IMG/VR virus record: IMGVR_UViG_3300009692_000017
Span: 28,277-92,276 of that record
DNA length: 64,000 bases
Strand: one strand, 5' to 3'
Source: a virus
Taxonomy: Duplodnaviria > Caudoviricetes
Below, piece by piece: positions 288-59,581 of the stretch. Numbering within the stretch: the stretch's first letter is position 1; each line of letters begins with the position of its first letter. The position numbers were made by a program, and so were the translations under genes. The notes beneath the pieces are model-generated. The model was not told the origin of the DNA. It saw nothing but the letters and a program-made list of their open reading frames with translations, and did no database searches.

Positions 288-341
288 TTACGTCCAATCT
301 TCATCCTCAAAAGGATCAATAATAGTTTTTAGATTTTCCAT
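288..341 (-). CDS. 17-aa micro-ORF MENLKTIIDPFEDEDWT
   Basis: Hand translation; TTAATATATA motif at 359-368 directly upstream; combines the MENLK leader (cf. 53165..53356) with a DPYGEEDW-like motif. Confidence 0.5.
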   Translation of the reverse strand: MENLKTIIDPFEDEDWT

Positions 342-383
342 CCTATGTTTTTTATACATATATATTAAAAAAAAATCTCCATT

Positions 384-707
384 TTAAAATGGAGATTTGA
401 AATTAGGTAATTTATAATTTGATGGGTTAAAGTTTTTGGTCAAATTACCGATATTTCCCATGTTAGGCATCTTTTGATTCTTATCTTGTTCTTCATGATG
501 TTTCTTTTCGTTTTCATTTTTTTCATTCAACAATTTAATATATCTTTCAAATTCATAATAAGGCCATGTATCTACAACAGTAGTTGGCATTCTAAGTTGA
601 TTCATGAATTCAAATTTATTACCTGTCAAATTTTCCCAAGAAACTGTAAAAACAGTAAAAATGTTTTTTTCAATCTCTTGAATTTTATTTCTTTGAGATT
701 CTGTCAA
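384..707 (-). CDS. T4 gp51-like baseplate hub assembly / tail chaperone protein
   Basis: VDTWPYYEFERYIKLLNEKNENE resembles the small gp51-like proteins that follow gp26; TTG start overlaps the upstream gene and is uncertain. Confidence 0.5.
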   Translation of the reverse strand: MTESQRNKIQEIEKNIFTVFTVSWENLTGNKFEFMNQLRMPTTVVDTWPYYEFERYIKLLNEKNENEKKHHEEQDKNQKMPNMGNIGNLTKNFNPSNYKLPNFKSPF

Positions 708-1626
708 GTAAACTAGAACCTGGTTTGAAGATACTTGAGGCCCCCTTGGGAAACGTCATGTCCGTGTGGACCTCCTCACCACACACAGGACAATTAATTT
801 TCAATTCTTTTATGCCATATAACATTTTACCAACAACTTCATCTAAAAACAAGAAAGTATCCATATCTAAATTTTTAAATTCCTCTTCTTTTGCCTTAAT
901 ACCGTCTTCTGAAATAGTTTTTCTATCCCATAATGTAAAAGGAATTATTTTTAAAAATGACACATTCGGTGTTTTTTCAGATTGTACCTTATCCTTTATG
1001 TTCTTAAAGAATATTTCTTGAATACTAATACACGGTGGAGCCAATTTATAAATTTTTTCGTTAATATTGAAGTCAAACGTTCTATCAACTTTATTAAAGA
1101 ATTGTTCCAGATCTTTATCCATTTCATAATTAACAAATGTTTTTGGACAATCCGTACCTACTGTAGCACGAAATTGAATCTTAAATTCATGTTTACAATT
1201 ACTACACGTGGCATCTTTTGCTAAATTACTGTTTTTTTGAAACGTTAATTCACGAATCATAAAAATTAAAAACAATCTATCATTATCTTTTAAATCTTTA
1301 TACGTACCCATCATTCCACCAGGATGCTTGATTTTTACACATCGAGACAACATTTCATTCATTTTTTCAGTTACATCAAGGTAATTGTTATCATCTATCG
1401 ACGAATAAGCTTGCACTTCAGAAACTGAAGCTGCTCTAATCATAACAGTTGTGCCTGGTTTATAGAATATACCAGCAGGTAATACACTTAAATCGACAGT
1501 AATATAATTTATAGTATTACCATATTGATTATCAAATTGTTTTTCTGTAGTGATGTTAACTTGTGGTTTTGTTGATTCGGATATAAATTTCTCTAATGCG
1601 TCCTTTTTATTTTCTTTTTCTTCCAT
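685..1626 (-). CDS. T4 gp26-like baseplate hub subunit
   Basis: LP..G.FY, DRLFLIFMIRELTF, two CxxC pairs (CSNC, CPVC); tail-gene context; late-type motif at 1648-1657. Confidence 0.65.
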   Translation of the reverse strand: MEEKENKKDALEKFISESTKPQVNITTEKQFDNQYGNTINYITVDLSVLPAGIFYKPGTTVMIRAASVSEVQAYSSIDDNNYLDVTEKMNEMLSRCVKIKHPGGMMGTYKDLKDNDRLFLIFMIRELTFQKNSNLAKDATCSNCKHEFKIQFRATVGTDCPKTFVNYEMDKDLEQFFNKVDRTFDFNINEKIYKLAPPCISIQEIFFKNIKDKVQSEKTPNVSFLKIIPFTLWDRKTISEDGIKAKEEEFKNLDMDTFLFLDEVVGKMLYGIKELKINCPVCGEEVHTDMTFPKGASSIFKPGSSLLDRISKK

Positions 1627-1720
1627 AAAATAAGTATTTTTTATTAGTATATATTAAAGAAGGTTTGGCCCGTTAAAAAATATCTATAAACTTGAACTTT
1701 GATTTTCAATATATAATTAT

Positions 1721-3079: not shown

Positions 3080-3314
3080 CGATATTAATTTTTGTAACAT
3101 TTTTTATAAAATCCACTCAATATCTATTCTTTTATGTTTATGCCAACAATAATTATCATTACAAAATCTAATTGACCATTCGTAATGTCCCAACTTAATC
3201 ATCACATTTTTAAAAAAAGATAAAAATTGATAATGACAAGAATATGTAGTTTGTTCATTATTTCTATTAAGTACCGGATATATTTGATAATTTTGTTTCA
3301 TTCTTCTATATGAA

Positions 3315-3938: not shown

Positions 3939-3994
3939 ATTCTTATATTAATTTTTTAAATATATTCTTATATATTAATTTTTAATATGAAAAT

Positions 3995-4026
3995 AAAAAA
4001 AAGAGGTGAATTTCTCCGCCTCTTTT
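3995..4026 (-). terminator. Intrinsic terminator after HNH gene
   Basis: aaaagaggtg...cgcctctttt inverted repeat flanked by A/T runs. Confidence 0.6.
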
Positions 4027-4036
4027 GATTGTTATA

Positions 4037-5796: not shown

Positions 5797-5801
5797 AATT
5801 A

Positions 5802-5851: not shown

Positions 5852-7390
5852 ATGAATAATAATGTAGAAATTATAATAAAAGAAAATGGACCGTCTGGGA
5901 GAATGTATTTAGAGAAATATGTTATGAAAAATCATATTGATATCTATAACGACATTATATCTTTTTGTAATGATAATGATTTAAAAGAACTGTCATTTAA
6001 AGAAAAAGTATATCATTATGTTAATGATATTAAAGAAATTGTGTTATGTAAAAATCCGAATTGTAATAATAAAACAAGATTTAAAAATTCAACATTAGGA
6101 TATGGTAATTATTGTTCCATTCAATGTATAAGTAGTGATCCCAATATTAAAGCGATTAAAGAAAAGAAATCATATGAAAAATATGGAACTAAGGCACCAG
6201 CGATGAATAAACGGGTTAAAGATAAAATGATTAATACAAATAATAATAGATATGGCGGAAATAGTCCATTAAATAATAAAGATATTATCGAAAAGTCCTT
6301 AAAATCTTTTCGAAAAACAAAAATAAATAAAAATTTAGAAAAATATAAAAACTATAAAAACTTACAAATACTAGGTGTAGATTATGATAACAAAACATTT
6401 AAATTTAAATGTGATAAGAATCATGTATTTGATATAGATATGAATCTATTTAGAAATAGAAATAAAATAGATACAGTAATATGTACAGTTTGCAATCCCG
6501 TAAGTTCTTTTAGTAATAGTGGTCATGAGTTGCAATTTAGAAAATATATTGAAGACACGTATAAAGAAGAAATATTATATAACGATAGAAATATAATAGG
6601 TAAAGAAATAGATATTTACCTACCAAAATTGATGTTGGGTTTTGAATTTAATGAAGTTTATTGGCATAATGAATTACACAAACCAAATAATTTTCATTTA
6701 GATAAAACGGTACTATGTGAGAAAAATAAAATAAAATTAATACATGTATATCAAGACGATTGGTTGTATAAACAAAACATAGTTAAATCCAGAATTCTAA
6801 ATCTTCTTGGTAAATCGGAAAGAATAATGGCTAGGAAATGTATAATAAAAGAAATTGATGATAATGATTTGGTTAGAGAATTCCTAGATCAAAATCACTT
6901 ACAGGGATTTGTTGGTTCTAAAATTAAAATTGGTTTATTTTTCAAAAATGTATTAGTTTCTTTAATGACGTTTGGGGATCTTAGGAAATTAATGGGTCAA
7001 AAATCTTTAGATGGATCATATGAAATGTTACGATTTTGTAATAAATTGAACAATAACGTTATCGGAGGAGCTAGTCGTTTATTCAAATATTTCATCGATC
7101 ACTATGAACCGAAAGAAGTAATAAGTTATGCTGATCGTAGTTGGTCATCTGGTAATTTATATGAAAATCTAGGATTTAAATTAATTCATAAAACACAACC
7201 AAATTATTATTATGTTACAAATGACGGTATAAGAAAACATAGATTTGAATTCAGAAAAGACGTTTTAATTAGACAAGGATTCGATCCAAATAAAACTGAA
7301 CACGAAATAATGTTAGAACGCAAAATTTATAGAATATACGACTCGGGACATTTAAAATATAAATACGAAAACAAAAAAAAGGAGACCTAA
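5852..7390 (+). CDS. Hef-like homing endonuclease (Vsr-like domain + conserved C-terminal domain)
   Basis: EIDIYLPKLMLGFEFNEVYWH; ARKC..NHLQGF..YEMLRFCNK..GGASRLFKYF..SYADRSWSSG; inserted antisense between sheath and tube. Confidence 0.75.
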   Translation: MNNNVEIIIKENGPSGRMYLEKYVMKNHIDIYNDIISFCNDNDLKELSFKEKVYHYVNDIKEIVLCKNPNCNNKTRFKNSTLGYGNYCSIQCISSDPNIKAIKEKKSYEKYGTKAPAMNKRVKDKMINTNNNRYGGNSPLNNKDIIEKSLKSFRKTKINKNLEKYKNYKNLQILGVDYDNKTFKFKCDKNHVFDIDMNLFRNRNKIDTVICTVCNPVSSFSNSGHELQFRKYIEDTYKEEILYNDRNIIGKEIDIYLPKLMLGFEFNEVYWHNELHKPNNFHLDKTVLCEKNKIKLIHVYQDDWLYKQNIVKSRILNLLGKSERIMARKCIIKEIDDNDLVREFLDQNHLQGFVGSKIKIGLFFKNVLVSLMTFGDLRKLMGQKSLDGSYEMLRFCNKLNNNVIGGASRLFKYFIDHYEPKEVISYADRSWSSGNLYENLGFKLIHKTQPNYYYVTNDGIRKHRFEFRKDVLIRQGFDPNKTEHEIMLERKIYRIYDSGHLKYKYENKKKET

Positions 7391-7422: not shown

Positions 7423-10400
7423 TTATGCTGGGGAAAATCCTTTTGATGAGATTGTTCCTTTTTTGAGAATTGTAATATTATTTACAATTATACCCATTCC
7501 CTTTATGATTTCCACATACGTATCAAGCACACCCATTTGTAGATCAATTATATAATCGGTGTTATTTGTTTTGTCACATACGTTTTTGAAATCGTAGAGT
7601 GCGTTGGTATCTAGAAGTTCTTTGCAGATTTGATCAGCTCTGAATTTTATTTCAGCTCTAATTTCAGGTGTATTAAATCTCCAATGATAGTTGAGTAACA
7701 TATCATATAGTCTATTTTCGAGTTCAATAAGAACTTCTCTGGAGTGCATATAGCTAAGTGAAGAAATTGGAAATACTTGAGCAGTGCTTTCAGAGTTTAT
7801 ATTATATCCTCTATTAAGAGAATATACAATTGGATTGGCTCCCATAGCATAGAAGTTTTCTAGATCTTCATTAGTAAATCTCATTTCTGTTGCAGAAATG
7901 TCTTTTATTTTTGAAAATTGAGGACCAGCTATAATTTGCCACGGATAAGAACTACCGAGTTCACCTGTGAATTTTGCCATATAGGCTTTAGCTGCCTTGG
8001 CAGCTGGTGGAATGAATTTAGTATTATCGTTAACATCTTTTACATATGGGAAGAAATAACCAACAGTTGACATACCAACACCGTTTCCAAAACTATATAA
8101 GAAGTTAGGGTTGAGATCTGGATTACCACCTTCTTTGATGTATTCAGTATTAATTGTTCTATCATCATTTATAAAACTTGGATTTATTGATGTTTTGAAT
8201 TGTCTGACGCTTGGCATATTAATGAATCCAAGACAGTTCAATTTAGCACCACAGAGATCAACATATTCTTGTTTAGAATTTGAAGTTAAACCCAGTCCAA
8301 ACGAATCCACTAAATATCTCCAAGTGATTCTATTTTTATTAACAAGTCCTTTAGCCAAGTTTGTTGATTTATCAATAACACTCATGATTGAATCTAATCT
8401 AGCGTCTGTTCCATTTGGAATAGAATCTGGATGTATTACGAATGGATCTAATGTTACACCATAATATTCATCAAAGTAATTATCGATTGATTTATATGCA
8501 GTAGTTTGATAATCCGGAGTTAATGTGGAACCAGAATTATTCCAAATTTTAATAGGACCATCTGCATATAAAATTTTCAATGATGTATTTACAGTATCGC
8601 CAACAGTATTTATGATTTTTACCAATTTTCTTGGTTGTTCACCATTTAGATAACCTTGGCCTGGCGCATCATAGTATGATGTATCATAATAACCTTCGAG
8701 GTACCAACCTTTTGTTATTTCACTATATCTTGTTTTATCAACATAAATATAATATGTGTTTGTAAGATCGGTTATGCTGCTATAATTTTCGATTTCTAAA
8801 GTTTGTTTCATATTTTCTTTATCTGAATGTACTGATAATTTATAATCATATAATGGCCAATTTAATGGATTTATTTGCACAGGATCTGATGTTGGATCAT
8901 TTAATAAAAATTGTGTTATTAAATTTTTATTTTCATCAATGTACATTTTCAAATAATAAATATTTGTTGTTTCTCCTGTATCATTATTTTTATAAAACCA
9001 ATCTAGATTGTTTATTTCACCATTATAATAACCCAAATAGAAATTTGAATATTTTGCGGCTACTCCGAAGTCTATTCCTAATCCTGTCATTGGATATACT
9101 GGTTTTTCTGTTGTCATTATTGTTGATATTTTAGCTGATACACCGGTTGGTAGTACGAATTCATTATCAACATAATATATTATGAATTTTCCATTATTAC
9201 AATAATCTGCTGGTATGTAACTCACGCCATCGAAATAAATTACAATTTTTGCATTTTCTGTTGTAGTGCTTTCAAAAATGAAATAATTATCGTCTATATT
9301 ATATTTATAACCATTTTTATAATTAATAATTGCTGATTTTCCTAATAAAATTTTAGATTCCATTTCAGCAAACACCTTTTGAAGTCTTAATTTATCATAA
9401 TCCGAATAAATTGTCGAACCACTAGTTCCTTGGAATGTTAAGATTAAAGACGTGGATGTAGTAGTACATAATATTGTGTAATCATCCATCGATTGATAAT
9501 ATCTATATCCTGATGAAGTCGTAGTTACACCAGTATAATATGATGTTGTTTCGTCATCGTTCCATGTGTGTTTAATACTACATAAAATTATTGTATTTTC
9601 ATTACTTAATAAATAATTTGGAGCACTTGGTGTTGTTCCAACAGATGCAGTACCAGTTAAAACGTGAGATGTAGATGAATCTGTACTTAAATAAACAACA
9701 TCAATTCTACTTTGAGTTGTTCCTGAACTTGTACCTGAACCCAGAACAAAAGGACTAAAGAAGATTTTTTCTGAATTCAATTGGTATTGAGTTTCACCGA
9801 TTTGATACGTATAACCTGATACATCATCGATCAATTTATTTTTAATTGAATAAATAAATGTATTTGTGGTTCCTGATGAAGTTATTCCAGATAATGGATC
9901 ACCATCATGAGATCCAGAAATTGTTATTGATGTATTTCCAGTATTTATGATATAATATGGAGTTAAACTATCAATTATACCAAAAGATCTATTGAAATAA
10001 ATAACATCACCTATTTCTGTTGTACCCGAAACAATACTCGTGTTAGTTGTCAATACCCCAGTTGATGAATCTATTGCATTTATTTTATATGTATAATTAT
10101 AATTTACGCCATTTGCTAATTCTGGATAAATATTAGTATACCAATTTGTATATGCGGCTGTTCTGCCTGATAACCATCCTGGAGTTGAAATCATATTTAC
10201 AGCATAATTACCAAAAACATTTCCGGGACTATCTAAATAAGTTTGTTCGTAATCCAAAATTTCACTAAAGGTTCCTTTATATGACATGAAATTTAAAGAT
10301 TTTTTATCAGTACCGACTAATGTCGAACCAATTAAATCGATAGCACCTTTTGGATAATCAGCATTCAATAGGGCATCTTCATTATAATAACAGAAAATTC

Positions 10401-11476: not shown

Positions 11477-12106
11477 TTATCCTCTATCTGGCGGCAAATT
11501 AATATCTACATCATTGTGTAATGGATCATCATATCGGACGCGTGTAGAATGTCTTCCGCAGGCTTTGTCTGCGGCTATCTCTTCATCTGATTTTAATCCT
11601 ACTGCCATCTGAAAATGACGTGTTATATCTTCTCCAAAAAGTGTGTCCATTTCTTTTCGAAATTCTATTAATATTTTTTTAACGATAATTTTCTCTTCGT
11701 TTTTTAATGTTTTTATCACTTCTCTTATAAATGAATCATAATACAAAGAGACTGCCGTCATGTCTATAAAATTTACATCGCCCTTTTCTTTTAGGTCATA
11801 CAAACATTGTTTTATTTCTGGGTTTCTCTCTAATATATTGGAGTCAATTGCATCTATTTCTTTCTTATATTTTTTAAGTATTTTGCTCATTTTTATATAT
11901 TTAAACAATCCTTTGAATGGATAATTTTGCCAAGATCGAGACCATCCGCCACCACTTTTGTTACCAGTCCCAAATTTTGCATATCTAGTATTTAACCATA
12001 ATAAAAATATTAAAATTGGAATTGTGCCTAAAGAAACAAATCCTATTATTTCTTCGTTTAACAATTCATCCTGATTAAATTTTTCGTAAGTTTTTAAATT
12101 TTTCAT
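11477..12106 (-). CDS. Hypothetical protein with CTS-like leader and one TM helix
   Basis: MKNLKTYEKFNQDELLNEE then hydrophobic stretch; TTAATATATA at 12130-12139. Confidence 0.6.
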   Translation of the reverse strand: MKNLKTYEKFNQDELLNEEIIGFVSLGTIPILIFLLWLNTRYAKFGTGNKSGGGWSRSWQNYPFKGLFKYIKMSKILKKYKKEIDAIDSNILERNPEIKQCLYDLKEKGDVNFIDMTAVSLYYDSFIREVIKTLKNEEKIIVKKILIEFRKEMDTLFGEDITRHFQMAVGLKSDEEIAADKACGRHSTRVRYDDPLHNDVDINLPPDRG

Positions 12107-27424: not shown

Positions 27425-28513
27425 TTGATTTTGAAATTTAAACTATTTGAAGGTAAATATGACAGAATTAGTGGAATTTCTGTAGACGAAATATGGAAAA
27501 TAATCAAAATCACGAAAGTTTTATATGATTTAAAAGTACCTTGTTTAAGTTGTGATGAACTGGGTTACATAGAAAAAGAAATCGATTACAGTTTCTCTAG
27601 TCCAGTGGAATATGACTTAATATTAAAGATTAAAAGAGATAAAGTATTTAGAAAAGAAGGATTTTATATTGATGGTTCAAGTGATGATATAGAAGGAATT
27701 ATTTTTATAGAATTGGTAATAGATCCAGATAAAGAACCTAATTGTTATAATGAATTAAATTCATTTCTTCAAGAAACGATTAGACATGAAATAGAACATT
27801 TAACACATGGAGGATATAACAGAATAGAAGATAGACCCGATCCAGATAAAACAATGAAAATTAGAATTGCGTTGAATAAAGCAAATGTAAAAGGAGATTT
27901 TGTTAATTCTTATAAATATTATTTATTAGAAGATGAATTAGGACCTCTAGTTCATGGAATGTATAGAAAAGCCAAAACAGATAAAAAACCAATTACAACT
28001 ATATTTAATCAATTTTTATCAATAATGGAAGAAGAGGGGATAATTAATAAAGAAAAAAGAAAATTAGTTTATAAAGAATGGGTTAAATACGCTAAAAAGG
28101 TTTTACCGCATGCAAAATACGAATCATATGAAGAGAAAGATTTGGATTATAGAGAAATAAAAGAAAATTCTAAATTTAAGCTTCCTATAGGAACACATGT
28201 TATTGTTAAAAATTGGTATGGAATAGAAAGATTTAGAAATAAAATTGGAATAGTCATAGGTTATCATAAATCTTATGATGATTGTTTTCTAGTCAAGTTT
28301 GATGAAATATTTTATCCCAATAGTGTGTTGCGTCTTTATCAACACAGTGGTGGTAATAGTATGGAAGACCCAACAAAAAGATCTCGATATTTTAATAAAG
28401 CCGAAATAGAACCAATTGATAAAGACATGGTGGAAGAAATAAAGAGAAAAATAGAAGAAAGAAGATTGAAAATGTTGGACGTAGATCCATATGGTGAAGA
28501 AAACTGGGAATGA
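27425..28513 (+). CDS. Zincin-like (HExxH) domain + SH3-like domain protein with CTS-like leader and DPYGEENW tail
   Basis: MILKFKLFEG; IRHEIEH; LPIGTHVIV; ends DVDPYGEENWE; TTAATATATA at 27395-27404. Confidence 0.65.
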   Translation: MILKFKLFEGKYDRISGISVDEIWKIIKITKVLYDLKVPCLSCDELGYIEKEIDYSFSSPVEYDLILKIKRDKVFRKEGFYIDGSSDDIEGIIFIELVIDPDKEPNCYNELNSFLQETIRHEIEHLTHGGYNRIEDRPDPDKTMKIRIALNKANVKGDFVNSYKYYLLEDELGPLVHGMYRKAKTDKKPITTIFNQFLSIMEEEGIINKEKRKLVYKEWVKYAKKVLPHAKYESYEEKDLDYREIKENSKFKLPIGTHVIVKNWYGIERFRNKIGIVIGYHKSYDDCFLVKFDEIFYPNSVLRLYQHSGGNSMEDPTKRSRYFNKAEIEPIDKDMVEEIKRKIEERRLKMLDVDPYGEENWE

Positions 28514-34670: not shown

Positions 34671-35504
34671 TTAATCTCCCCCATCTAGTTGATTTAGACG
34701 TTGCAAAGAATAATTGTAATTGTCAATATCTTTTTTCTTATTTTTTTTAGAATTTTTAGGTGAAAATAAAAATAGATGATGACTAGTCATAAAGGTGTCA
34801 TAAATACCAGTATAATCTATTATTCTTCTTAACCTTATATTATAAATGTTTTCTAATTTATTAGATGTTGCGAATCTATGAAGGGATTTATAATTTCTTA
34901 TTTCATCTCTTTCGTATCCGGGTTGTTCATCTTCCCATGTCTCTTCCCCATATGGATCTATATTCACGTAAGTATTTAAAATTTCTTTTGTTTTTTTATC
35001 CTTTATGGTACCTGAAAAATCTATTAATGTTATATCTTGATAATCTAATATGTTTAAATCTGTTATAATCCCGTCATTTTTAATTTTATCTATAAATGAT
35101 TTTATATTTCTTCTATCTCCGATAATAGCATATATGTGTTGTCTAAAGTTATCATTTCTAAAATCTTCAGATAATTCTCTCATTTTTTTTCTGATTAATT
35201 TTCTTCTCGCGATTGGAAAAAATATTGTAATAAGTAAATTCATCACACTAAAAGAATTTATTATATAACCGGCTGATGACAAATATTTTTTCCAATCGGG
35301 TCCTAAAATTTGAATTAATAATATTGAAAAAGCAATAAACATCATTGCGAAAGAACCGTTACACGCCAAAAGATACATTTTTCTTAAAAATTGTTCTTTT
35401 TTTTGAAAACTCAAATTTTTCAAATATAATTTTATTTTATCTCCAACATCAGAAATTATTCCTTCGTTTAAGAAATCATCATATTTTAATAAATGTTCAT
35501 CCAT
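34671..35504 (-). CDS. Two-TM protein with CTS-like leader and internal DPYGEETW motif
   Basis: MDEHLLKYDDFLNEG; paralog of the next gene (YAIIGD, YNIRLR). Confidence 0.65.
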   Translation of the reverse strand: MDEHLLKYDDFLNEGIISDVGDKIKLYLKNLSFQKKEQFLRKMYLLACNGSFAMMFIAFSILLIQILGPDWKKYLSSAGYIINSFSVMNLLITIFFPIARRKLIRKKMRELSEDFRNDNFRQHIYAIIGDRRNIKSFIDKIKNDGIITDLNILDYQDITLIDFSGTIKDKKTKEILNTYVNIDPYGEETWEDEQPGYERDEIRNYKSLHRFATSNKLENIYNIRLRRIIDYTGIYDTFMTSHHLFLFSPKNSKKNKKKDIDNYNYSLQRLNQLDGGD

Positions 35505-35506: not shown

Positions 35507-36400
35507 TTATCTTTTATTTTTTAATCCATATTTTCTGTAATTGTCATTATAGTCATTCAGTCCATAATCATATTCACTTTTAATTATCCTTTTTTCTTTA
35601 TTTTTAATCCCTATAACTATTGAATTGTCCAGGAAATCTTTAATATAGTTTATTTTTCTCAATCTAATATTATAATATCTCGATATATTATTTCCCAATC
35701 TATCAATTTTCAACACATTCACATTCATCATATATTGTTTATATATATCTTCTCTATTCATTTTTTTGTTTATTTCTTCATCGTCTTCCCAATCTTCTTC
35801 ACCGTAAGGATCTTCCATTGAATGTATTTTTATAATTTTTTCTATTTCTTCTTTACTTTTTACACTATTTTTTACTGATCCTCCAAAATCAATGACATCA
35901 ACATCGTCTATTTTAGCTAAATGTCCGTCATCTATTAAACCATCATCTTTTAATATTTTGATAAATGCTTCTTTATTTTTTTTATCACCTATTATAGCAT
36001 ATACATAGTCACTAAATTCATACTTATTAATTCTATTTCTAATGTCGGTCATTTTTCTTCTTATCATATTTTTTCTTTCAGATTTTAATGTCGTACTCCA
36101 TCCAAAAATGAACCACATACACATTAAAACGATTTTAACAGATGAATATTCTTTTAAAAATTCTTTTATATTTGTCACTTTCAATATTTCACACAGTGCT
36201 GACGCGACAAGTAAAATTGATAAAGATATTGATCCATATACGAGATATTTATAAATTTTTCTCAAATAGAATTCCCTCTTTTGAAAGTCCAATTTATCCC
36301 AAGCATTTCTTATTTTTATCTTAATTTTATTAAATTCTTCTTTTACATTAGAAATAATTCCTTCATTTATGAAATCGTCATATGCTAATAGATTATTCAT
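35507..36400 (-). CDS. Two-TM protein with CTS-like leader and internal DPYGEEDW motif (start revised)
   Basis: ATG at 36400 gives MNNLLAYDDFINEG; TTAATATATA at 36424-36433. Confidence 0.65.
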   Translation of the reverse strand: MNNLLAYDDFINEGIISNVKEEFNKIKIKIRNAWDKLDFQKREFYLRKIYKYLVYGSISLSILLVASALCEILKVTNIKEFLKEYSSVKIVLMCMWFIFGWSTTLKSERKNMIRRKMTDIRNRINKYEFSDYVYAIIGDKKNKEAFIKILKDDGLIDDGHLAKIDDVDVIDFGGSVKNSVKSKEEIEKIIKIHSMEDPYGEEDWEDDEEINKKMNREDIYKQYMMNVNVLKIDRLGNNISRYYNIRLRKINYIKDFLDNSIVIGIKNKEKRIIKSEYDYGLNDYNDNYRKYGLKNKR

Positions 36401-36443
36401 TATTTTGTTTGTTTTTTTTATTCTATATATTAAAATATAAAAC

Positions 36444-36473
36444 AAAAAAAGATCTCGAATAGAGATCTTTTTT
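36444..36473 (-). terminator. Intrinsic terminator
   Basis: aaaaaagatctc-gaata-gagatctttttt. Confidence 0.7.
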
Positions 36474-41912: not shown

Positions 41913-42428
41913 ATGAATACATTATTAAAATACGGTAAAAAATCATCAAATCAAGATGTCGAAAATTTTAAAAATGAAAATCAAAATACCGATGAAGACG
42001 TGGTAAGAGAAATAGAGAAAGAAAATGATGATATTATTAAATATCGGGATGAAGATTTTATAGAAAAAATAAAATTAAAAGCGTTGGAATCATATGGAAA
42101 TTGGGGAAAACATTGGTATTCTTTGCAATACGATAATTATTGTGACAATAATTATCAACCATACTGCTGGAAGCGAAGCGAACCACAGGAAAAAAAGACA
42201 TCGAATAATGATTCTTTAATTGACACAATTAAAGCTCTTATAAAAGAAAATGATGAATTAAAAACCGAAAAGAAAAAAATCGAAAGAGATCTAAATTCTG
42301 AAATTATTAAAATGAAAAAAATCATTATTGATTTACAGGAAAAACTTAAATTCATTGATAGTGATATAGATAGATATAAAAAATATAAAGAAATAGATCC
42401 TTACGATGAGGAAAATTGGTGTGATTAA
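41913..42428 (+). CDS. Coiled-coil protein with DPYDEENW tail
   Basis: Ends KYKEIDPYDEENWCD. Confidence 0.6.
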   Translation: MNTLLKYGKKSSNQDVENFKNENQNTDEDVVREIEKENDDIIKYRDEDFIEKIKLKALESYGNWGKHWYSLQYDNYCDNNYQPYCWKRSEPQEKKTSNNDSLIDTIKALIKENDELKTEKKKIERDLNSEIIKMKKIIIDLQEKLKFIDSDIDRYKKYKEIDPYDEENWCD

Positions 42429-44122: not shown

Positions 44123-44788
44123 ATGGGTTATACTACAGAATTTCAAGGTACTTTAAATTTTAGCCGACCAGCAACCGCAGAAGAAAAAAATTATATTAAC
44201 TTGATATCACGTACACGTAGAATGAAACGCGATGTCGTCAAATTAATGGAATTATATAATGGAAAAGGCGGAAATCCCTTTGCCGATGGATATACACCGG
44301 AAGAAATATATGGTGTCGATGGTGAATATTTTGCTGTAGATGATGGTCTTAATGGTCAAAAATATGACGACTCTATCGTTGATTATAATGTCCCACCTGG
44401 TCAAATGTCCTACGTTTCTATTAGAAAAGATGAAAGACCAGCGTTAGAAATGGCGAGGATTTTTAATGAAAATAGAAGAAGAATTAACGATGGAGATTGT
44501 CAACCGAGTTTGTGGTGTCAGTGGGTTATTACTGAAGACGGAACCGGGCTGGAATGGAACGGTTATGAAAAATTTTATGAATATGAACATTGGCTAAAAT
44601 ATCTCATAAAACATTTTTTTAAAAAATGGGATATTAAATTGAATGGTGAAATTTTTTATTATGGAGAAGAACCTGATGACAAAGGAATCATATCAGTAAA
44701 AGATAATATCGTTGAGTTAAAAGAAATAGAAATAAAAAGAATATTTACACCAGAAGATCCTTATGGTGAAGAAGATTGGAACGAATAA
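44123..44788 (+). CDS. Phage hypothetical protein with appended DPYGEEDW tail
   Basis: MGYTTEFQG...QPSLWCQW...WNGYEKFY...LNGEI...GEE; ends RIFTPEDPYGEEDWNE; TTAATATATA at 44100-44109. Confidence 0.7.
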   Translation: MGYTTEFQGTLNFSRPATAEEKNYINLISRTRRMKRDVVKLMELYNGKGGNPFADGYTPEEIYGVDGEYFAVDDGLNGQKYDDSIVDYNVPPGQMSYVSIRKDERPALEMARIFNENRRRINDGDCQPSLWCQWVITEDGTGLEWNGYEKFYEYEHWLKYLIKHFFKKWDIKLNGEIFYYGEEPDDKGIISVKDNIVELKEIEIKRIFTPEDPYGEEDWNE

Positions 44789-45901: not shown

Positions 45902-46045
45902 ATGATAGTTTTTATTTTAGTAATTGGATTAATATTGTTCTTATTATTATTGACGTATTTTCATCAAAGAGAACAAAGAAATAATATGGAAGAAGATGAA
46001 AATTATGTTGAACCAAAAATAGAAAGGGAGGAGGATGAATCATGA
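45902..46045 (+). CDS. 47-aa single-TM protein (not in ORF track)
   Basis: AGGAGG at 45891; MIVFILVIGLILFLLLL...; ATGA overlap with next gene. Confidence 0.5.
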   Translation: MIVFILVIGLILFLLLLTYFHQREQRNNMEEDENYVEPKIEREEDES

Positions 46046-46332
46046 ATTATACAATCACGTATGATAATATTACTTGGACTAATGATTCAACAGATGTTTT
46101 CAAAACATATGAACAACCAGTTGAACAATCTGTTGAATCATATTATTTAGATTACAACACTATAATTGATATTAATAATATGAGATCAGAAATCTATAAC
46201 CTTAAAAAAGAATTAGAAGATTCTAAAAAAATCATAAATAAATTAGAAAAATTAATATTTGAATTTATTGATAATCCAGATAAAATAAAAAGTATAAGAA
46301 AAATAGATCCTTATGGTGAAGAAGAATGGTGA
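46042..46332 (+). CDS. Small coiled-coil protein ending in DPYGEEEW
   Basis: Stop codon immediately follows the motif Trp. Confidence 0.65.
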   Translation: MNYTITYDNITWTNDSTDVFKTYEQPVEQSVESYYLDYNTIIDINNMRSEIYNLKKELEDSKKIINKLEKLIFEFIDNPDKIKSIRKIDPYGEEEW

Positions 46333-46372
46333 AAATAAAAAACGAGAATCAAATTTAATAGAGAAATATAAA

Positions 46373-46747
46373 ATGTCATCTGATTTAGCATATTCAATGA
46401 TGAATAACACTATATCAGAATATTTGATGTTGTATAATCATCGATTTAACACATCACGAACCAGAAAAGAAATTGTTGATGGGATATCAATGAAAATTGA
46501 AGAACAAAAAAGACAATTTCTTGACGATGATATAAACTATGAAGTAATATGTAATGAAACAAATAATCCTGATATTATTGTCGATATTCAACATTTAATA
46601 GTCGATGTGGATATAATAATAAATCATTTTCATTATATTTTACATTATCATTTAGGAGGAGAAGAAGTAAAAAAACCAACCAAAATAATGAATCAAATTT
46701 TTACAGACGAAGATCCTTATGGTGAAGAAGATTGGGGGGAATATTAA
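46373..46747 (+). CDS. Stand-alone tail-sheath C-terminal-domain paralog with DPYGEEDW tail (start revised)
   Basis: LYNHRFNTSRTRKEI / ICNETNNPDIIVDIQ align with sheath NYHWRFNTPEIRAEI / VCDKTNNTDYIIDLQ. Confidence 0.65.
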   Translation: MSSDLAYSMMNNTISEYLMLYNHRFNTSRTRKEIVDGISMKIEEQKRQFLDDDINYEVICNETNNPDIIVDIQHLIVDVDIIINHFHYILHYHLGGEEVKKPTKIMNQIFTDEDPYGEEDWGEY

Positions 46748-47012: not shown

Positions 47013-47579
47013 TTATTTATCTTCCCATTTTTCTTCATCGTATGGATCTACTATTTTTCTTTTGATCTTGGTTTTTTTTATAATTTCTTTTTCTTCATCT
47101 GTCAAATTAAAAACATTTGATAATTTTTCTCTTTTTTTCAAATTTTTAGATAATATATAAATATCATTTATACAAGAGGATATTTGCTCATTGTTATTTT
47201 TTTTAATTGATTCAATCAATTGCAATTTAATATTTCTTAATTCTTCCTCGATATCTGGATATTTTTCTATTAAACCCTCGATAACTTTAAATCTTTTATT
47301 AGTAATACCTAATAAACCAATTGATCTTAAATTATTATATAATTTCTTTAATGATACTTTAAAAATTAAATTTAATGATAATGGAACATAAGAAACTAAA
47401 GCGATCGCTCTAAAAAGATCTTTCACAATAACATTATCTAATAATAATCCAAACCAACAAAAACTTCCAAATATACTTGTTATGAATAATGATGCCCAAT
47501 CATTTATATTCATTTTTTTATTTACGAAATCATACAACCCTTCGTTTACAAACTCTTCATATCTTTTTATATTATTCAT
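47013..47579 (-). CDS. Two-TM protein with CTS-like leader and DPYDEEKW tail
   Basis: MNNIKRYEEFVNEG; ends IVDPYDEEKWEDK; TTAATATATA at 47598-47607. Confidence 0.65.
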   Translation of the reverse strand: MNNIKRYEEFVNEGLYDFVNKKMNINDWASLFITSIFGSFCWFGLLLDNVIVKDLFRAIALVSYVPLSLNLIFKVSLKKLYNNLRSIGLLGITNKRFKVIEGLIEKYPDIEEELRNIKLQLIESIKKNNNEQISSCINDIYILSKNLKKREKLSNVFNLTDEEKEIIKKTKIKRKIVDPYDEEKWEDK

Positions 47580-47613: not shown

Positions 47614-48027
47614 TTATTTTTTTTTGTTTTTATATCTTGAAATTAATTTTCTTTTAGATTTTTCTTGATTTTTAATAATTTCCATTTTTCGTTTTTTAAT
47701 GATTTCTTGTTCAACTTTATTTGGTGAAGGATTACATCTACAATATAAATTATAGAATGGTTGTGTATTTTTAATATTTATTATATTTTGATCGACTACA
47801 TATTTATTACCGAATTTATATTCTGGTGTATCTTCACCCAACCAATAAACATCGTCATCTATTTCAAAATTTTTATCAAAAGCAAATCTTTCAGACCCAT
47901 TTGGATCCAAATAATTGATTCTATATCCTCTTGATTCCATGTCAGAACAATAAGGGGATTTATCCTTACTCAGAGGCATTCTGGTATTAAATGCGTATAA
48001 TTCATTGAATTTTTTAATATGTATCAT
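47614..48027 (-). CDS. Hypothetical protein with CTS-like leader
   Basis: MIHIKKFNELY. Confidence 0.6.
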   Translation of the reverse strand: MIHIKKFNELYAFNTRMPLSKDKSPYCSDMESRGYRINYLDPNGSERFAFDKNFEIDDDVYWLGEDTPEYKFGNKYVVDQNIINIKNTQPFYNLYCRCNPSPNKVEQEIIKKRKMEIIKNQEKSKRKLISRYKNKKK

Positions 48028-50473: not shown

Positions 50474-50815
50474 TTATATTTCTTCAATTTTCCATCCCCA
50501 ATCTTCTTCGCCATATGGATCTATTTCAGGATTTTCTATTTTTTTAAAATCTTTAATTTTTCTCATATTATGTGGGCTCACCCACCAATTGATTTCTTCT
50601 ATATAATATAATTTACCAAAATATCTATAAAATGCTACTATTTCACCATTAAAAATATTAGTATGAACATCAGAGTCATAAGTTATATTGTCTATAGTTC
50701 CAATTAATCCATCTAATTCACGTTCATCAGCGTTTCCTCTTAAAACGACTTTATCACCAATTTTAAAATCATCATCGATATTTTCTTTTATATACGTTGA
50801 AAAATTACTTATCAT
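50474..50815 (-). CDS. SH3-like domain protein with CTS-like leader and DPYGEEDW tail (start revised)
   Basis: MISNFSTYIKEN, FKIGDKVVL, EIDPYGEEDWGW. Confidence 0.65.
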   Translation of the reverse strand: MISNFSTYIKENIDDDFKIGDKVVLRGNADERELDGLIGTIDNITYDSDVHTNIFNGEIVAFYRYFGKLYYIEEINWWVSPHNMRKIKDFKKIENPEIDPYGEEDWGWKIEEI

Positions 50816-52418
50816 TTTTTTTAAATAGATTTTTAATATGATATTCATCATCGATTTCGTGATCTTCAAGATCTTCAATTTTTTTTTCGATATCCTTATA
50901 GATTCCTTTAATATTATCTATATTTATCCACAAAAAATTGCCATCGCTCCCTCCTTTGTCTCCATGCAACTTAAAATTGAATTCCACTAAATAACTATAG
51001 GAATCGCCCATTGACTTTTTAACCTTATGTCTTATTGTTGCTATCTTATTATCGATATCTAGCATATTAGAATATCCTTTACAAACTATAACATCTCCGA
51101 TAAAATAATTCAATTTTGGTTCTAGTCCTATAATTTGACTTTTCTGAGGTTTTTTATAATTTGAATCAAGATAAGATTTAATTTTGTGATAGTCTGTATC
51201 GTTAAAATAAAACATGAAACCATAAACACCTACAATGTTAGAATATTTTATAAGTTTTTCATTTTTTAATTTTTCTATTTGATCTTTTTTTAAAAAAATA
51301 ACTTCGCCGCTTGGAAATCCAACAACATAAATATCATTATCTTTTTTTGATAAGTTGATAATTTCAACTTTCATTTCTTTATCTACTGAATGCCCATTAA
51401 GATAAACTTGATATACATTATTTACTTCAACACTATTAACCATCATGTTTTTAATAACGTTGGCTTTAGTGTACCAAATACAAGTTTCTCCAAGTAAAAG
51501 ATCTTTTATGTTTTTTTCGGCCAAAGTTGCATCGCCTTTACAATCTGCAATTATAGTATTTAAATTGACATATTTAGGTTTGAAATTTTCATATAATTTA
51601 TTTTCACTTGTGAATTCTTCATCAATCCATTCTTCTTCACCGTATGGATCGTCTATTACATGTTTTAATTTCATTTTTTCTTTTTTTTGTTTTATTCTTT
51701 CTTGTTCTTCTTTCCATTTTTTAATATCATCTTCACTCGCTTTTTTTAAACGATTAAGGTATATATAATATGAAGATCTAGTATAATCATCATTATTGCT
51801 GCCATCGTGTAAACAATCATCGAATCTTACATTAAATTTGACAGTTGCGACAGCAAGTGTAATACATGTTATAATACCAATTTCACCTTTAAATAAAATG
51901 TCGTCCATTCTTCCGTTACATACTACCACATCTCCAACATTAAAATCGTCTTTACTTTCGTAAATTTTGTTTTCGTTTTCCCATTCTTCTTCACCATAAG
52001 GATCAACATCACGATATTTCAATCTCAATCTTTCTTTTTCTTTTTCTTTTTTATCGTAAAACGCTTTACATTTTTCTTTTCTTTTATTATATTCATTTTC
52101 GTCCAAATAACAAGATATTTTCCTATTGTAAATTGGTTCATATTCGTATCCGTTTTCGTCTATAAATGTATAATTGTGGTTATCTGGTTTAATGACATCC
52201 ATCACATAAATCGAATATTTTTGTTGAAGGGAACAATTTTTAGATGTTGTTCTATAGACATCAATAATAACTCTATTATTTTTTAAAATATCCATTAAAT
52301 ATGCACAAACAGGACCATAGTATCGATTATTTTCAAATGTTTGAAATTTGTTTTGAATTTGTTCTATTGTAAATTGATATTTAATAGATTCGTTTATATA
52401 AGTTAAATAATTTTTCAT
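50805..52418 (-). CDS. Modular protein with CTS-like leader, two internal DPYGEEEW motifs and two SH3-like domains
   Basis: MKNYLTYINES; motifs at 51981-52004 and 51627-51650; FNVGDVVVC and YFIGDVIVC domains. Confidence 0.7.
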   Translation of the reverse strand: MKNYLTYINESIKYQFTIEQIQNKFQTFENNRYYGPVCAYLMDILKNNRVIIDVYRTTSKNCSLQQKYSIYVMDVIKPDNHNYTFIDENGYEYEPIYNRKISCYLDENEYNKRKEKCKAFYDKKEKEKERLRLKYRDVDPYGEEEWENENKIYESKDDFNVGDVVVCNGRMDDILFKGEIGIITCITLAVATVKFNVRFDDCLHDGSNNDDYTRSSYYIYLNRLKKASEDDIKKWKEEQERIKQKKEKMKLKHVIDDPYGEEEWIDEEFTSENKLYENFKPKYVNLNTIIADCKGDATLAEKNIKDLLLGETCIWYTKANVIKNMMVNSVEVNNVYQVYLNGHSVDKEMKVEIINLSKKDNDIYVVGFPSGEVIFLKKDQIEKLKNEKLIKYSNIVGVYGFMFYFNDTDYHKIKSYLDSNYKKPQKSQIIGLEPKLNYFIGDVIVCKGYSNMLDIDNKIATIRHKVKKSMGDSYSYLVEFNFKLHGDKGGSDGNFLWINIDNIKGIYKDIEKKIEDLEDHEIDDEYHIKNLFKKNDK

Positions 52419-53380: not shown

Positions 53381-53938
53381 TCAATTTATCCTTATTTCCT
53401 TTATTTTTAATGATTTTAAATAATTTTTATATTCTTGGGTGAATCTATTATTAGAACATTTTAAATATCTTAAATTCGTTAAACTTTCAATCCCTTCTAA
53501 ACTAGTTAATTGATTATAAGAACAATCCAATTCTCTTAAATTAGTTAAATGTTCAATGCCTTCTAAACTAGTCAATTTATTATTAGAACAATATAATTCT
53601 CTTAAATTCGTTAAATGTTCAATGCCTTCTAAACTAGTTAATCGATTAGTATTACAAAATAATATTTTTAAATTCGTTAATTGTTCAATACCTTCTAAAC
53701 TGGTTAATTCATTATTATAACAATATAATATCTCTAAATTCGTTAAATATTCAATTCCTTCTAAACTAGTTAATTCATTATTATAACAATATAAACTCCT
53801 TATTTGATCTAATAGCATATTTTGTTTTTTGGCTAACGTTATTATAGGTGTATCGTTATCGTCGTTCCAATCTTCCTCACCATAAGGGTCAATGTCTTGT
53901 CTACTTAATTGTTCAAATGTTCTAAAATTTTTTATCAT
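53381..53938 (-). CDS. Leucine-rich repeat protein (22-aa internalin-like repeats) with N-terminal DPYGEEDW
   Basis: LTSLEGIE.LTNL..L.C..N. repeated five times (66-bp period); MIKNFRTFEQLSRQDIDPYGEEDW. Confidence 0.85.
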   Translation of the reverse strand: MIKNFRTFEQLSRQDIDPYGEEDWNDDNDTPIITLAKKQNMLLDQIRSLYCYNNELTSLEGIEYLTNLEILYCYNNELTSLEGIEQLTNLKILFCNTNRLTSLEGIEHLTNLRELYCSNNKLTSLEGIEHLTNLRELDCSYNQLTSLEGIESLTNLRYLKCSNNRFTQEYKNYLKSLKIKEIRIN

Positions 53939-55480: not shown

Positions 55481-55486
55481 TATTTT

Positions 55487-57723: not shown

Positions 57724-57836
57724 GTAAAATTTTTTATTTATTTTATGTCTAATTCTTTATAAAGTTTTATTTTATGATAATAATTATCACTTTTAAAAAT
57801 TAATATATAAAAAAAATTGAAAAACTATTATAATAA

Positions 57837-58907
57837 ATGATATTATCATATAAAATTTTTGAATCCGAAATGAAACCAAAACCTGGTGATACTGTTGTGT
57901 GTGTTGGCAATATTGATGATTTAAAAACTCACAATCACGTTGGTATATTAAGAAATAACGGAATTGAATTTTTAAATAGATTCAGTGACAAATTGCACGA
58001 CTTGAGAGGTGAAATAAAAACTAAAAATGGTTGGTTTTTAATTGATCCTTCTTGGGTAAAACCGTTTTTTGATAATGAATCATCGAAAAATCTTCCAGTT
58101 TTTTATTCAAATAATTTTAAAAATATATTATCGTATAATTTAAAATTTCTTTTAGATTATGAAAGAATATATTATACTGATGTTTCTTTCATCGATAAAA
58201 CCAATAGAAACGATACTATTTCTTGTTTGAGTAGAAGAAATTTTGATAAATTGGAAAACAAAAATGATGTTTGGATAACACAAATGCGTCAAAATATGAG
58301 AATTGGTGGATTTATTAAAAAAATTGTACCTGAGGAAAATCAAAGAATGATTCAAGACTATACAAACGAATATAAATTTTCTTATAATCTAAGTGAAAAT
58401 TATTTATGCGATTTTAAAATATACAAAGGAATTGATATGGCTAAATGGTTTTGGGAAGTTAATTATGCTTATGGTGGCGGATCTCTACATGGGTCTTGTA
58501 TGAAACATGTTAAATCTCAAAGGCGTTTACCTATATACACAGATAATCCAGATAAAATAAAAATGTTAGTTATTAAAAACAAAGAAAATAAATTACTCGG
58601 TAGAGCCTTATTATGGAAATTAGATGTACCAAAAGGAAAAATTTATATGGATAGAGTATATAGTGCTGAAGATTATATAGATAAATTATTCATTGACTAC
58701 GCAAAAAAGAAAGGGTATTTAACTAGATTTGATGTTGATAAAAATAATATAACAATGATAGTTAATATTGAGAGAGACTTCGGTCCTCCTCAATATAATC
58801 CATATATGGATACTTTTAAATTTTTTATTAAAGATAAGAATTATTTGACAAATAGATTTAAAAATTTTGGACCTGGCGATTATTATGAATATGTCGATCA
58901 TGATTAA
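57837..58907 (+). CDS. SH3-like domain + phage domain protein with CTS-like leader
   Basis: MILSYKIFES, KPGDTVVC, GSLHGSCM...GRALLW...YMDRVY...PYMDTF; TTAATATATA at 57800-57809. Confidence 0.65.
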   Translation: MILSYKIFESEMKPKPGDTVVCVGNIDDLKTHNHVGILRNNGIEFLNRFSDKLHDLRGEIKTKNGWFLIDPSWVKPFFDNESSKNLPVFYSNNFKNILSYNLKFLLDYERIYYTDVSFIDKTNRNDTISCLSRRNFDKLENKNDVWITQMRQNMRIGGFIKKIVPEENQRMIQDYTNEYKFSYNLSENYLCDFKIYKGIDMAKWFWEVNYAYGGGSLHGSCMKHVKSQRRLPIYTDNPDKIKMLVIKNKENKLLGRALLWKLDVPKGKIYMDRVYSAEDYIDKLFIDYAKKKGYLTRFDVDKNNITMIVNIERDFGPPQYNPYMDTFKFFIKDKNYLTNRFKNFGPGDYYEYVDHD

Positions 58908-58939
58908 AATTATAAAAAAAAATATTAATATATATCATC

Positions 58940-59581
58940 ATGTTGAAAAAATATTTCAAATATATAAAAGAATCAAATGATTCTACCAGTATGGTTAAAC
59001 CAGATCCATCGGGATTAAATGAAGTTTTAAATAGCAGAATAAGTTACAAATCAAAATATATATCCAAACTAAACGAAGGCATCATGAAGGTCAAAAAAGA
59101 TGTTTGTGAATCTATGATAGAAACTCTGAAAAAAGATTTGATCGGAAGATTAGTTCTCACGAAAAATGAAAAAGGAGATTTGAAGATATTGGATGTCAAA
59201 AATGTAATAGTTGAAAAACATGGTGATGATTTCTATCCAATTATAATAGAAAATAAAGATAAAAAAAGCATATATATATATGATAGTAATGAAAAATCAA
59301 GAATATTTTTTCTAGACGATTTTATGACTTTTTTTGAAGATAATTTCTTAAATAAATTATTATGTTTCAACGGTAAATCAATAAATGGGAGAAAAGAAAT
59401 GAGATTTACTAAATACATCACTGGAATAGGATTCAATCAAATGAAAAATGGTAGCGATCAATTATTGATAGAAGATGATAATGGAAATAAATATATACTA
59501 TATCATACCGAACCAATTAAAATATTAGATATGAGAGTTAAGGAACTCGATCCATACGGTGAAGAAAATTGGGAAAATTAA
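58940..59581 (+). CDS. Hypothetical protein with CTS-like leader and DPYGEENW tail
   Basis: MLKKYFKYIKES; ends ELDPYGEENWEN; TTAATATATA at 58925-58934. Confidence 0.65.
   Translation: MLKKYFKYIKESNDSTSMVKPDPSGLNEVLNSRISYKSKYISKLNEGIMKVKKDVCESMIETLKKDLIGRLVLTKNEKGDLKILDVKNVIVEKHGDDFYPIIIENKDKKSIYIYDSNEKSRIFFLDDFMTFFEDNFLNKLLCFNGKSINGRKEMRFTKYITGIGFNQMKNGSDQLLIEDDNGNKYILYHTEPIKILDMRVKELDPYGEENWEN

Follow-up and report, generated by a model that had tools for sequence, protein, structure and literature searches.

A portable peptide module, DPYGEExW, in unrelated proteins of one Mahaphage sub-clade and its candidate role as a docking label

Why does a phage carry the same short peptide on many proteins that are otherwise mostly unrelated? 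The question is raised by a 64,000-nucleotide stretch of viral DNA (the window), which is the final 64 kb of a 92,276-bp contig (IMG/VR record IMGVR_UViG_3300009692_000017, positions 28,277 to 92,276; 26% G+C; 13% complete by CheckV). In this window, a sequence-only reading had picked out the motif DPY[GD]EExW and interpreted it as a phage-wide addressing system. All 13 strict copies were recovered exactly where they had first been placed, in 12 open reading frames (ORFs) that measure 97-537 codons from stop to stop; every copy is in frame, and ORF 50805-52418(-) carries two. The rest of the contig holds 2 further strict copies and one DPYSEEDW. The whole contig thus contains 15 strict copies, compared with 0 in 200 mononucleotide shuffles of it, and the motif does exceed its shuffled background as had been supposed. 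The results below show that DPYGEExW is under strong purifying selection as a peptide, is portable and is restricted to one clade. We tentatively favour a docking function, which is weighed here against other explanations.

Selection on a portable and clade-restricted peptide

The relationship of the contig to other phages was assessed by homology and gene order. The 730-aa window protein at 16584-18776 has matches in six uncultured-phage records of 462-735 kb, the best being in LR756501/LR756503 (735 kb; 64.5% identity over the full length), and the window is syntenic with approximately 538-613 kb of LR756501 in reverse orientation. The 92-kb contig is a fragment of a 'Mahaphage' megaphage, and LR756501 is a complete 735 kb relative. 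According to sections of PMC7162821, genomes of 634, 636, 642 and 735 kb, which belong to the 'Mahaphage' clade, were the largest known phage genomes at publication, and Bacteroidetes are the predicted hosts of the Mahaphage genomes of 634-735 kb. In LR756501, the back-translated motif pattern finds 103 copies and its reversed control 0; by crude ORF calling, 86/1,025 ORFs (~8%) carry 100 copies. DPYGEE is the top over-represented hexamer of the LR756501 proteome (91 proteins versus 0.01 expected), and a loosened pattern adds only 2 near-variants to the 100 exact copies.

Repetition of this kind could also arise if the repeat worked as nucleic acid (DNA or RNA), for instance as a recombination site, promoter or mobile mini-element, and its translation were incidental. 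Consistent with this, motif codons deviate from the bulk average, with CCT, TAC and GGT over-used, and carriers cluster along the genome (24 adjacent pairs; 7.1 expected, and never more than 17 in 2,000 permutations). However, all window copies lie in the frame of a long ORF, every synonymous codon is used within the motif, and third codon positions vary freely. This combination of synonymous variation and constant frame, already pointed out in the sequence-only reading, indicates selection on the peptide and not on a DNA site. A genome-wide codon-context rule accounts for the TAC skew: Tyr in LR756501 is encoded by TAC in 65% of cases before a G-initial codon and in 23% otherwise, and the 75% observed for the tag Tyr is not significantly different from 65% (p=0.054). 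Conservation also continues upstream of the motif at the level of residues, including conservative substitutions, while nucleotide conservation regardless of frame, as in a translated DNA repeat or mobile element, was not found, and the reversed pattern is absent. The DNA- or RNA-level reading is already largely refuted, and we regard it as very improbable. As a separate observation, the codon-context rule for Tyr looks as if TATG were avoided: a TAT-GGN pair yields an out-of-frame ATG, and in the tag at 46306-46332 the ATG at 46313, formed by TAT-GGT, is the predicted start of ORF 46313-46747.

Portability was assessed by masking the tag and by comparing tagged proteins with their homologues. 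After masking, the 98 carriers (86 from LR756501 and 12 from the contig) fall into 91 BLAST clusters, 86 of them singletons, in agreement with the earlier statement that the carriers are mostly unrelated. ORF 44123-44788, which matches phrog_38666, belongs to a family with 1,143 detectable homologues. Among the 120 best of these, the tag is present in 5, all of them closest relatives, and the 115 untagged homologues end in a native ...KITYE... strand, so the tail is indeed lacking from most homologues elsewhere, a check that the sequence-only reading had proposed. One of the 115 is the database representative of the window protein itself (P0001, listed at 100% identity), which ends DPYGEEDCNE, compared with DPYGEEDWNE in the window; the Trp-to-Cys change is either a natural variant or a sequencing error. 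A profile search with the same family matched no solved structure. For 5 syntenic carrier pairs (contig versus LR756501), median identity is 33.9%, versus 64.7% for 37 untagged neighbours (p=3e-4), and the tag is unchanged in 5/5 pairs.

DPYGEExW is restricted to one sub-clade of 'Mahaphage' megaphages. Four further megaphage records of 462-642 kb contain no copy. In a set of 67 IMG/VR loci with the gene for the major capsid protein (MCP) at their centre, tags occur only in those whose MCP shares >=77% identity with the LR756501 protein (9 copies; 5/12 loci positive), and no tag occurs in the 55 loci with an MCP at most 72% identical. A motif scan of IMG/VR matched at least 98 stretches, many of them multi-copy. 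In bacterial and archaeal genomes (596 Gb), 72 single-copy matches were observed versus ~69 expected by our own chance calculation; since cellular genomes hold the motif at chance level, no host ligand is being copied. A few short low-GC contigs in Bacteroidetes, Bacteroidales and Hyphomicrobiales metagenome-assembled genomes (GTDB) end in typical C-terminal tags, for example KRIFSEI-DPYGEEDW-EN, and are probably phage fragments mis-binned with cellular genomes.

About 20 of the 72 cellular matches belong to one conserved ~439-aa Lactobacillaceae protein, which we take to be enolase, where the sequence ...EIISIE-DPYGEEDW-GHF... lies inside the fold. DPYGEEDW is evidently able to form part of a folded protein. 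This is relevant to the possibility that the motif has no common partner and is instead an autonomous structural or stability cap, or a post-translational modification site (for example Tyr in an acidic context). If the Lactobacillaceae protein is enolase, as we presume, DPYGEEDW there spans a strand, a turn and a helix cap. The strict invariance of the motif fits an enzyme substrate, and the acidic context of its Tyr is like that of kinase and sulfation sites. A stability cap, however, would have no need of seven fixed residues and would not work at internal positions, and we consider explanations of this type improbable.

The motif had been thought to be undescribed, and the literature gave no reason to think otherwise: a full-text search for 'DPYGEE' returned unrelated papers only, searches on huge phages returned no description of a shared peptide tag, and the main text of PMC7162821 uses 'motif' only of Shine-Dalgarno sites.

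The module and its carriers

DPYGEExW is the invariant core of a module of ~16-25 residues, typically [KR][KR][IV][FY][ST]x[EL]-DPYGEExW-[DEN][DEN]. The upstream part is common to most C-terminal and many internal copies, and 1-3 acidic or Asn residues follow the tag. The sequence-only reading had described a basic helix-like linker before the motif, which is only partly right: many copies have the upstream pattern just given, and N-terminal copies are preceded instead by a MIKK[YF]K[IL]FE-type tag (the N-tag). Among 225 pooled copies for which both ORF ends are known, 77 are C-terminal (<=10 residues from the stop), 55 N-terminal (<=30 residues from the first Met) and 93 internal; in LR756501, 40/100 copies lie <=10 residues from the C-terminus. 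Multi-copy carriers have 2-4 tags per protein, a few of them spaced by only 14-26 residues. In a 1,179-aa LR756501 protein, four tags at residues 40, 430, 508 and 583 flank and separate the deaminase domain (residues 61-173) and the CCA-adding enzyme (residues 736-1090). In 8 cases (LR756501 m0134, m0172, m0381, m0404, m0450; window 50805-52418), the ~30 residues behind the tag include a [FY]x[VI]GDx[VI] signature, which suggests a small beta domain; the 1,179-aa protein has three such tag-plus-domain units in tandem. An SH3-like domain with this signature was considered as a general partner of the tag and rejected, as it accompanies only these 8.

These properties would suit a short linear docking motif: DPYGEExW is short, lies in termini and linkers outside domains, and was gained independently by its carriers, and both its position independence and its multivalency are expected of a linear motif in linkers. 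From its sequence, it appears to belong with phage protein-targeting peptides and linear docking motifs. The sequence-only reading had compared it with the acidic-aromatic C-terminal tail of single-stranded DNA-binding protein (SSB), a comparison that fails on placement, with only the 77 C-terminal copies among the 225. In the SSB system the peptide sits on a single hub and is read by many clients; here it sits on the clients, which are many, as with clamp-binding motifs. The likeness that does exist, to sliding-clamp-binding motifs as well as to the SSB tail, is that a short peptide in disordered termini or linkers joins many partners to one hub. In contrast to such motifs, the seven invariant positions of DPYGEExW are much stricter than usual, and its carriers are not replication proteins.

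In the window, eight copies end 0-7 residues before a stop, as first reported. On the plus strand, these are DPYGEENW at 28484..28507 (1 residue before the stop of ORF 27425-28513, which from a TTG start begins with the N-tag-like (M)ILKFKLFEG), the Asp variant DPYDEENW at 42396..42419 (2 residues; ORF 41913-42428), DPYGEEDW at 44756..44779 following KRIFTPE (2 residues; ORF 44123-44788, with the phrog_38666 domain), DPYGEEEW at 46306..46329 (0 residues, the final residues of ORF 46042-46332), DPYGEEDW at 46712..46735 (3 residues; ORF 46313-46747) and DPYGEENW at 59549..59572 (2 residues; ORF 58940-59581, whose syntenic LR756501 orthologue is 34% identical and keeps the tag). On the minus strand, they are DPYDEEKW at 47025..47048 (3 residues; ORF 47013-47579, which also has an N-tag at its start, MNNIKRYEEFVNEG, score 18.6) and DPYGEEDW at 50498..50521 (7 residues; ORF 50474-50878). 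The remaining copies are on the minus strand as well. DPYGEETW at 34935..34958 is internal (residue 183/277) in ORF 34671-35504, which has the N-tag-like start MDEHLLKYDDFLNEG, and DPYGEEDW at 35789..35812 is internal in the paralogous ORF 35507-36445 (ATG form 35507-36400). The 537-aa ORF 50805-52418 carries DPYGEEEW first at 51981..52004 (residue 139, followed by the signature FNVGDVVV) and again at 51627..51650 (residue 257). DPYGEEDW at 53867..53890 occupies residues 17-24 of the LRR protein 53381-53938, directly behind the N-tag-like MIKNFRTFEQ; the protein starts MIKNFRTFEQLSRQDI-DPYGEEDW. A previously listed variant, DPFEDEDW at 294..317(-), is present, but its frame has only 31 codons (MENLKTII-DPFEDEDW-T); unlike the normal carriers, it is a mini-ORF or a remnant, and we left it out of the carrier count.

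Carriers are mostly small, fast-evolving orphans, and most have no Pfam or PHROG family. The diversity of folds first ascribed to the window carriers is supported unevenly: the LRR protein is confirmed (LRR_4, E 1.2e-44), the tail-sheath assignment of ORF 46313-46747, a 144-aa tagged paralogue of the tail-sheath C-terminal region, is only weak (phrog_23, E 6e-5), and beyond these and ORF 44123-44788 the window carriers have no significant Pfam or PHROG family, so that the earlier labels zincin+SH3-like and TM proteins gained no support from such matches. Annotated carriers in LR756501 include a CCA-adding enzyme with deaminase, a GNAT acetyltransferase, a methyltransferase, a phosphoribosyltransferase-like protein and a nucleotidyltransferase. 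Others are paralogous fragments of the portal, the protease-scaffold, the MCP and the sheath C-terminal region, and one is a 178-aa paralogue of the S77-like prohead protease with the tag at its C-terminus. Two positions at which the large protease hardly varies have changed in this paralogue (DHPD to GYPD and SSRAAG to RPRAAG), and judging from these changes it may be inactive; a diverged protease paralogue is also described for SPN3US and related giant phages in parts of PMC5694885. A homologue in LR756502 was found for 12/98 carriers versus 247/1,034 other genes. Carriers do not differ from other proteins in predicted transmembrane content, and the idea that they are basic DNA-associated proteins was dropped, isoelectric points and transmembrane content both being ordinary.

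Other window genes include a 1,288-aa tail sheath, a baseplate wedge protein and two homing-endonuclease-like genes. The sheath, at 7423-11289(-), is unusually long, and sheath families match its C-terminal ~350 residues only. The paralogues 5852-7390(+) and 30543-32108(+), each ~515 aa, are homing/HNH endonuclease-like (phrog_3339, E 1e-105 and 1e-119) and sit among the tail and baseplate genes.

A companion N-terminal tag

The N-tag is also found where DPYGEExW is absent. In LR756502, which lacks DPYGEExW, 107/975 ORF calls start with a MK[HY]L[KR]x[YF][KN][IL]FE[SN]-like sequence (hidden Markov model (HMM) score >=8), compared with 1 match in a control on internal windows, and the N-tagged share amounts to about 11-16% of ORF calls. 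Of five megaphage records, four contain matches to DNA patterns for the N-tag, and the reversed control gives 0. The form in LR756501 is MI[KR]K[YF]K[IL]FE, and N-terminal DPYGEExW copies there stand directly behind it, as in MIKKYKIFETKDNL-DPYGEE. The two tags are associated: 15/86 DPYGEExW carriers have an N-tag score >=8 versus 33/939 other genes (odds ratio 5.8, p=2.5e-6), and together the tags mark ~119/1,025 LR756501 ORF calls (~12%). In the window, the N-tag occurs by itself at 47614..48027(-) (MIHIKKFNELY, score 15.6), 57837..58907(+) (MILSYKIFESE, score 11.7) and 11477..12106(-) (MKNLKTYEKFNQ, score 17.5). Among the 100 longest of 148 N-tagged proteins, the annotated ones include a lysozyme, a T4-type RNA ligase 1, and NUDIX, methyltransferase, SET and HNH proteins. 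Turnover of N-tagged proteins is fast as well, with a LR756501 homologue for 6/107 versus 190/868 untagged LR756502 proteins. A literature search on three N-tag strings returned unrelated papers only.

Expression class was assessed from upstream elements. Of 10 structural genes checked, 7 have the element TAATATATA at 28-33 nt upstream of the start codon: those for the portal, protease, MCP and baseplate wedge, plus three more large genes of the virion module. In LR756501 its enriched form is TTAATATATA(G/A), and a TAnnTTTG element is enriched upstream of other genes; by sequence, the former looks like a late promoter and the latter would be host-type. With these classes defined by crude regular expressions and each gene assigned to the nearest co-directional upstream class, N-tagged genes are 27 late-like versus 2 TAnnTTTG-type, compared with 416 versus 242 for other genes (odds ratio 7.9, p=5e-4). 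We regard the N-tag, which the sequence-only reading had not picked up, as the older half of a two-tag system with DPYGEExW.

Candidate receptors and what a label would mean

A clade-specific, position-independent, selected module on ~90 unrelated proteins is the pattern expected of a label with one receptor. We therefore favour, tentatively and with limited confidence, the reading that DPYGEExW is an address label that docks on a single receptor, preferably the prohead core (the protease-scaffold and its surroundings). The addressing system proposed in the sequence-only reading keeps its footing in peptide selection, portability and genome-wide spread; docking itself, its target and any cleavage are what we infer from these. 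Three points lead us to prefer the prohead core: a protease paralogue bears the tag, carriers include paralogues of head proteins, and DPYGEExW is associated with the N-tag. Under such a scheme, one Mahaphage sub-clade would have added the module to the C-terminus, N-terminus or inter-domain linkers of ~8% of its proteins, and the assembling prohead core would be the shared receptor at which this shifting group of accessory proteins gathers. Packaging in the very large capsid and delivery alongside the DNA would follow for the tagged proteins, and Y-G-E in the tag could be a Glu-specific prohead-protease site that frees the cargo.

Short terminal peptides are known to bring cargo or protease into HK97-fold shells, as in the cargo-loading peptides of encapsulins and the C-terminal targeting tail of the HK97 prohead protease. 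Those peptides, like the SPN3US propeptide mentioned below, differ from DPYGEExW in being terminal, loosely conserved and present on one or few cargos. T4 offers a further comparison, since its internal proteins and Alt have at the N-terminus a short capsid-targeting sequence (CTS), which attaches to the prohead core and is cleaved off by gp21 (sections of PMC7411985 and PMC5694885). The CTS is ~10 residues long, and fusion to it encapsidates foreign proteins (PMC8442874, in part). T-even internal proteins are described, in a portion of PMC3012670, as highly diverse with the CTS alone in common, and the fast turnover of tagged genes in both genomes matches that description. DPYGEExW is likewise a short peptide on diverse, fast-evolving accessory proteins (91 clusters among 98 carriers) of a phage with a T4-type head module. 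In contrast to the CTS, it is not an N-terminal propeptide of ~10-20 residues (77/55/93 pooled copies at C-terminal, N-terminal and internal positions; 8/13 window copies C-terminal), since it also occupies C-termini and linkers, often in several copies. Its sequence is different and far more rigid, and it is found on ~86 proteins per genome and not on a handful. The N-tag is closer to the CTS: it is N-terminal, ~10-12 residues long, similar in aromatic spacing and in its terminal [FIL]-x-E (hydrophobic-x-Glu), present on diverse proteins and biased to the putative late promoter (CTS features from parts of PMC8442874, PMC7411985 and PMC3012670). For the SPN3US protease, prohead targeting is thought to be due to its C-terminal propeptide (PMC7411985, in part), a terminal peptide that targets a protease much as the C-terminal tag might act on the small protease paralogue here.

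The head module itself is T4-type, with a portal, an S77-type protease fused to a scaffold-like region, and an MCP. The protease-scaffold (L107:13913-16333 in LR756501; L177:7496-9919) has ~13 tandem repeats with an E-Y-I-A-E core, joined through a Q/A-rich linker to a small C-terminal domain, and by their sequence these repeats look like serial protease cleavage sites. The tag holds Y-G-E-E, to be compared with the invariant S-E-Y-A-E at the MCP N-terminus and with E-Y-I-A-E in the scaffold. This raises the possibility that the motif is chiefly a recognition and cleavage site of the phage protease, and that multi-tag proteins are polyproteins cut into domains. Seven invariant residues are typical of enzyme recognition, tags lie outside and between the domains of multi-domain carriers, and the aromatic-small-Glu pattern is shared with the two head-protein sites. 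Related prohead proteases, namely those of T4, phiKZ and SPN3US, all cleave after Glu, and T4 Alt is processed at both ends (passages of PMC5694885). However, with 40/100 LR756501 copies so close to the C-terminus, cutting would release few residues, and tandem copies 14-26 residues apart enclose no domain. Cleavage as the main function is thus unlikely. When the head-module flanks of other lineages were searched by k-mers for alternative tags, the matches were mainly orthologous scaffold repeats. A separate observation concerns the MCP hairpin IYV-DPY[MQ]RW-DDN (for example residues 502-515 of L177:10001-11755), which is nearly invariant in 56 aligned relatives; it resembles the tag in having a strand, DPY...W and acidic residues, and it is found in lineages with and without the tag.

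Several results weigh against docking on the prohead core. Although proteins packed into the prohead are expected to be late, DPYGEExW carriers show no late-like bias (34 late versus 23 early, compared with 409 versus 221 for other genes, by the crude promoter classes above). Clade-specific substitutions are few, at 3/808 positions of the protease-scaffold and 3/585 of the MCP, so that neither protein shows visible co-evolution with the tag. Carriers are no more basic than other proteins (median isoelectric point 6.5 versus 6.1); T4 internal proteins are highly basic (PMC8442874, in part). The CCA-adding enzyme, deaminase, methyltransferase and phosphoribosyltransferase carriers are nucleotide or tRNA enzymes with no obvious capsid role, and Y-G-E cleavage would free only 2-6 residues from many C-terminal copies. 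Our analysis found no docking partner for DPYGEExW; co-folding of the 40-residue tag region of 44123-44788 with the protease-scaffold of an IMG/VR relative gave scores of 0.00 and 0.00 against a mark of 0.32 (controls were not folded), an outcome that by the rule of the tool counts neither for nor against docking. A tag-swap test between LR756501 and LR756502 was weak, with few conserved carriers (12/98): 1/12 carriers with a LR756502 homologue matched the strict N-tag pattern there, and three enzyme orthologues in LR756502 have N-tag-like starts by eye only (HMM scores -1.2 to 2.1).

The missing late bias, the metabolic enzymes, the non-basic carriers and the few MCP and scaffold substitutions make a cytoplasmic or host hub a serious rival. 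The label could then dock on a host or phage cytoplasmic protein, such as a tRNA/RNA-processing platform, a chaperone or a protease adaptor. All evidence for a portable peptide-level motif applies equally to such a hub, the carriers are divided between the two promoter classes much as genes in general are, and those with annotation lean to tRNA and nucleotide enzymes. In one variant, the tag could mimic the linker by which archaeal Nop10 docks on the TruB-family protein Cbf5, with host TruB as the partner. Four Nop10 chains were the only PDB sequences matching the tag profile, through RFSPE-DPYGE, which is near-identical to window tags such as KRIFTPE-DPYGEE; this linker is an extended docking segment that binds Cbf5 directly by a 'proline spine' (parts of PMC3443816), and TruB was found in 14/14 control genomes. 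Nevertheless, the match is not significant (E about 1.4) and covers a local 10 residues only, the pooled logo has Pro at the corresponding position in just 8%, and the aligned stretch has no counterpart to the tag Trp and acidic tail. Neither a PF04135 match nor a PF01509 partner was found in any of the five phage records (TruB_N, Nop10p and PseudoU_synth_2 matches in 0/5, with controls detected), and the RluA-type pseudouridine synthase family was likewise not found in the phage records searched, which leaves host TruB as the only candidate for that part. It is also hard to see why ~90 unrelated proteins, including capsid, portal and sheath pieces, would bind a pseudouridine synthase, and mimicry of a host ligand is at odds with the chance-level frequency of the motif in cellular genomes. 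We consider a non-capsid hub possible, though doubtful on present evidence.

Returning to the address label, the two tags may also form one system. In this proposal, which we put forward with considerable reserve, an ancestral CTS-type N-tag and a younger, position-independent DPYGEExW would both direct more than 1/10 of the proteome to one structure. The shared destination would be the interior of the giant capsid, or else some other phage-built compartment or assembly platform. It is conceivable, but just as uncertain, that two-signal protein sorting of this kind has no described phage counterpart.

Most genes of huge phages have no known function, and an address label would class ~100 orphans per genome in one step. 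It would also bear on how a phage brings new genes into an existing machine, with the tag invariant and the cargo diverging ~2x faster than its neighbours; if the reading is true, an eight-residue label would suffice to recruit newly acquired or newborn genes to a structure. For nucleus-forming jumbo phages, PMC11087766 reports that bioinformatic searches gave no conserved signal sequence for protein import, and for this reason DPYGEExW, if confirmed as a label, would be the first clear phage case of sequence-encoded protein addressing on such a scale. It would then represent a bacterial-virus version of organelle targeting signals and a ready handle for loading foreign proteins, and if it is a capsid-loading signal, it would be usable as a position-independent protein-packaging tag.

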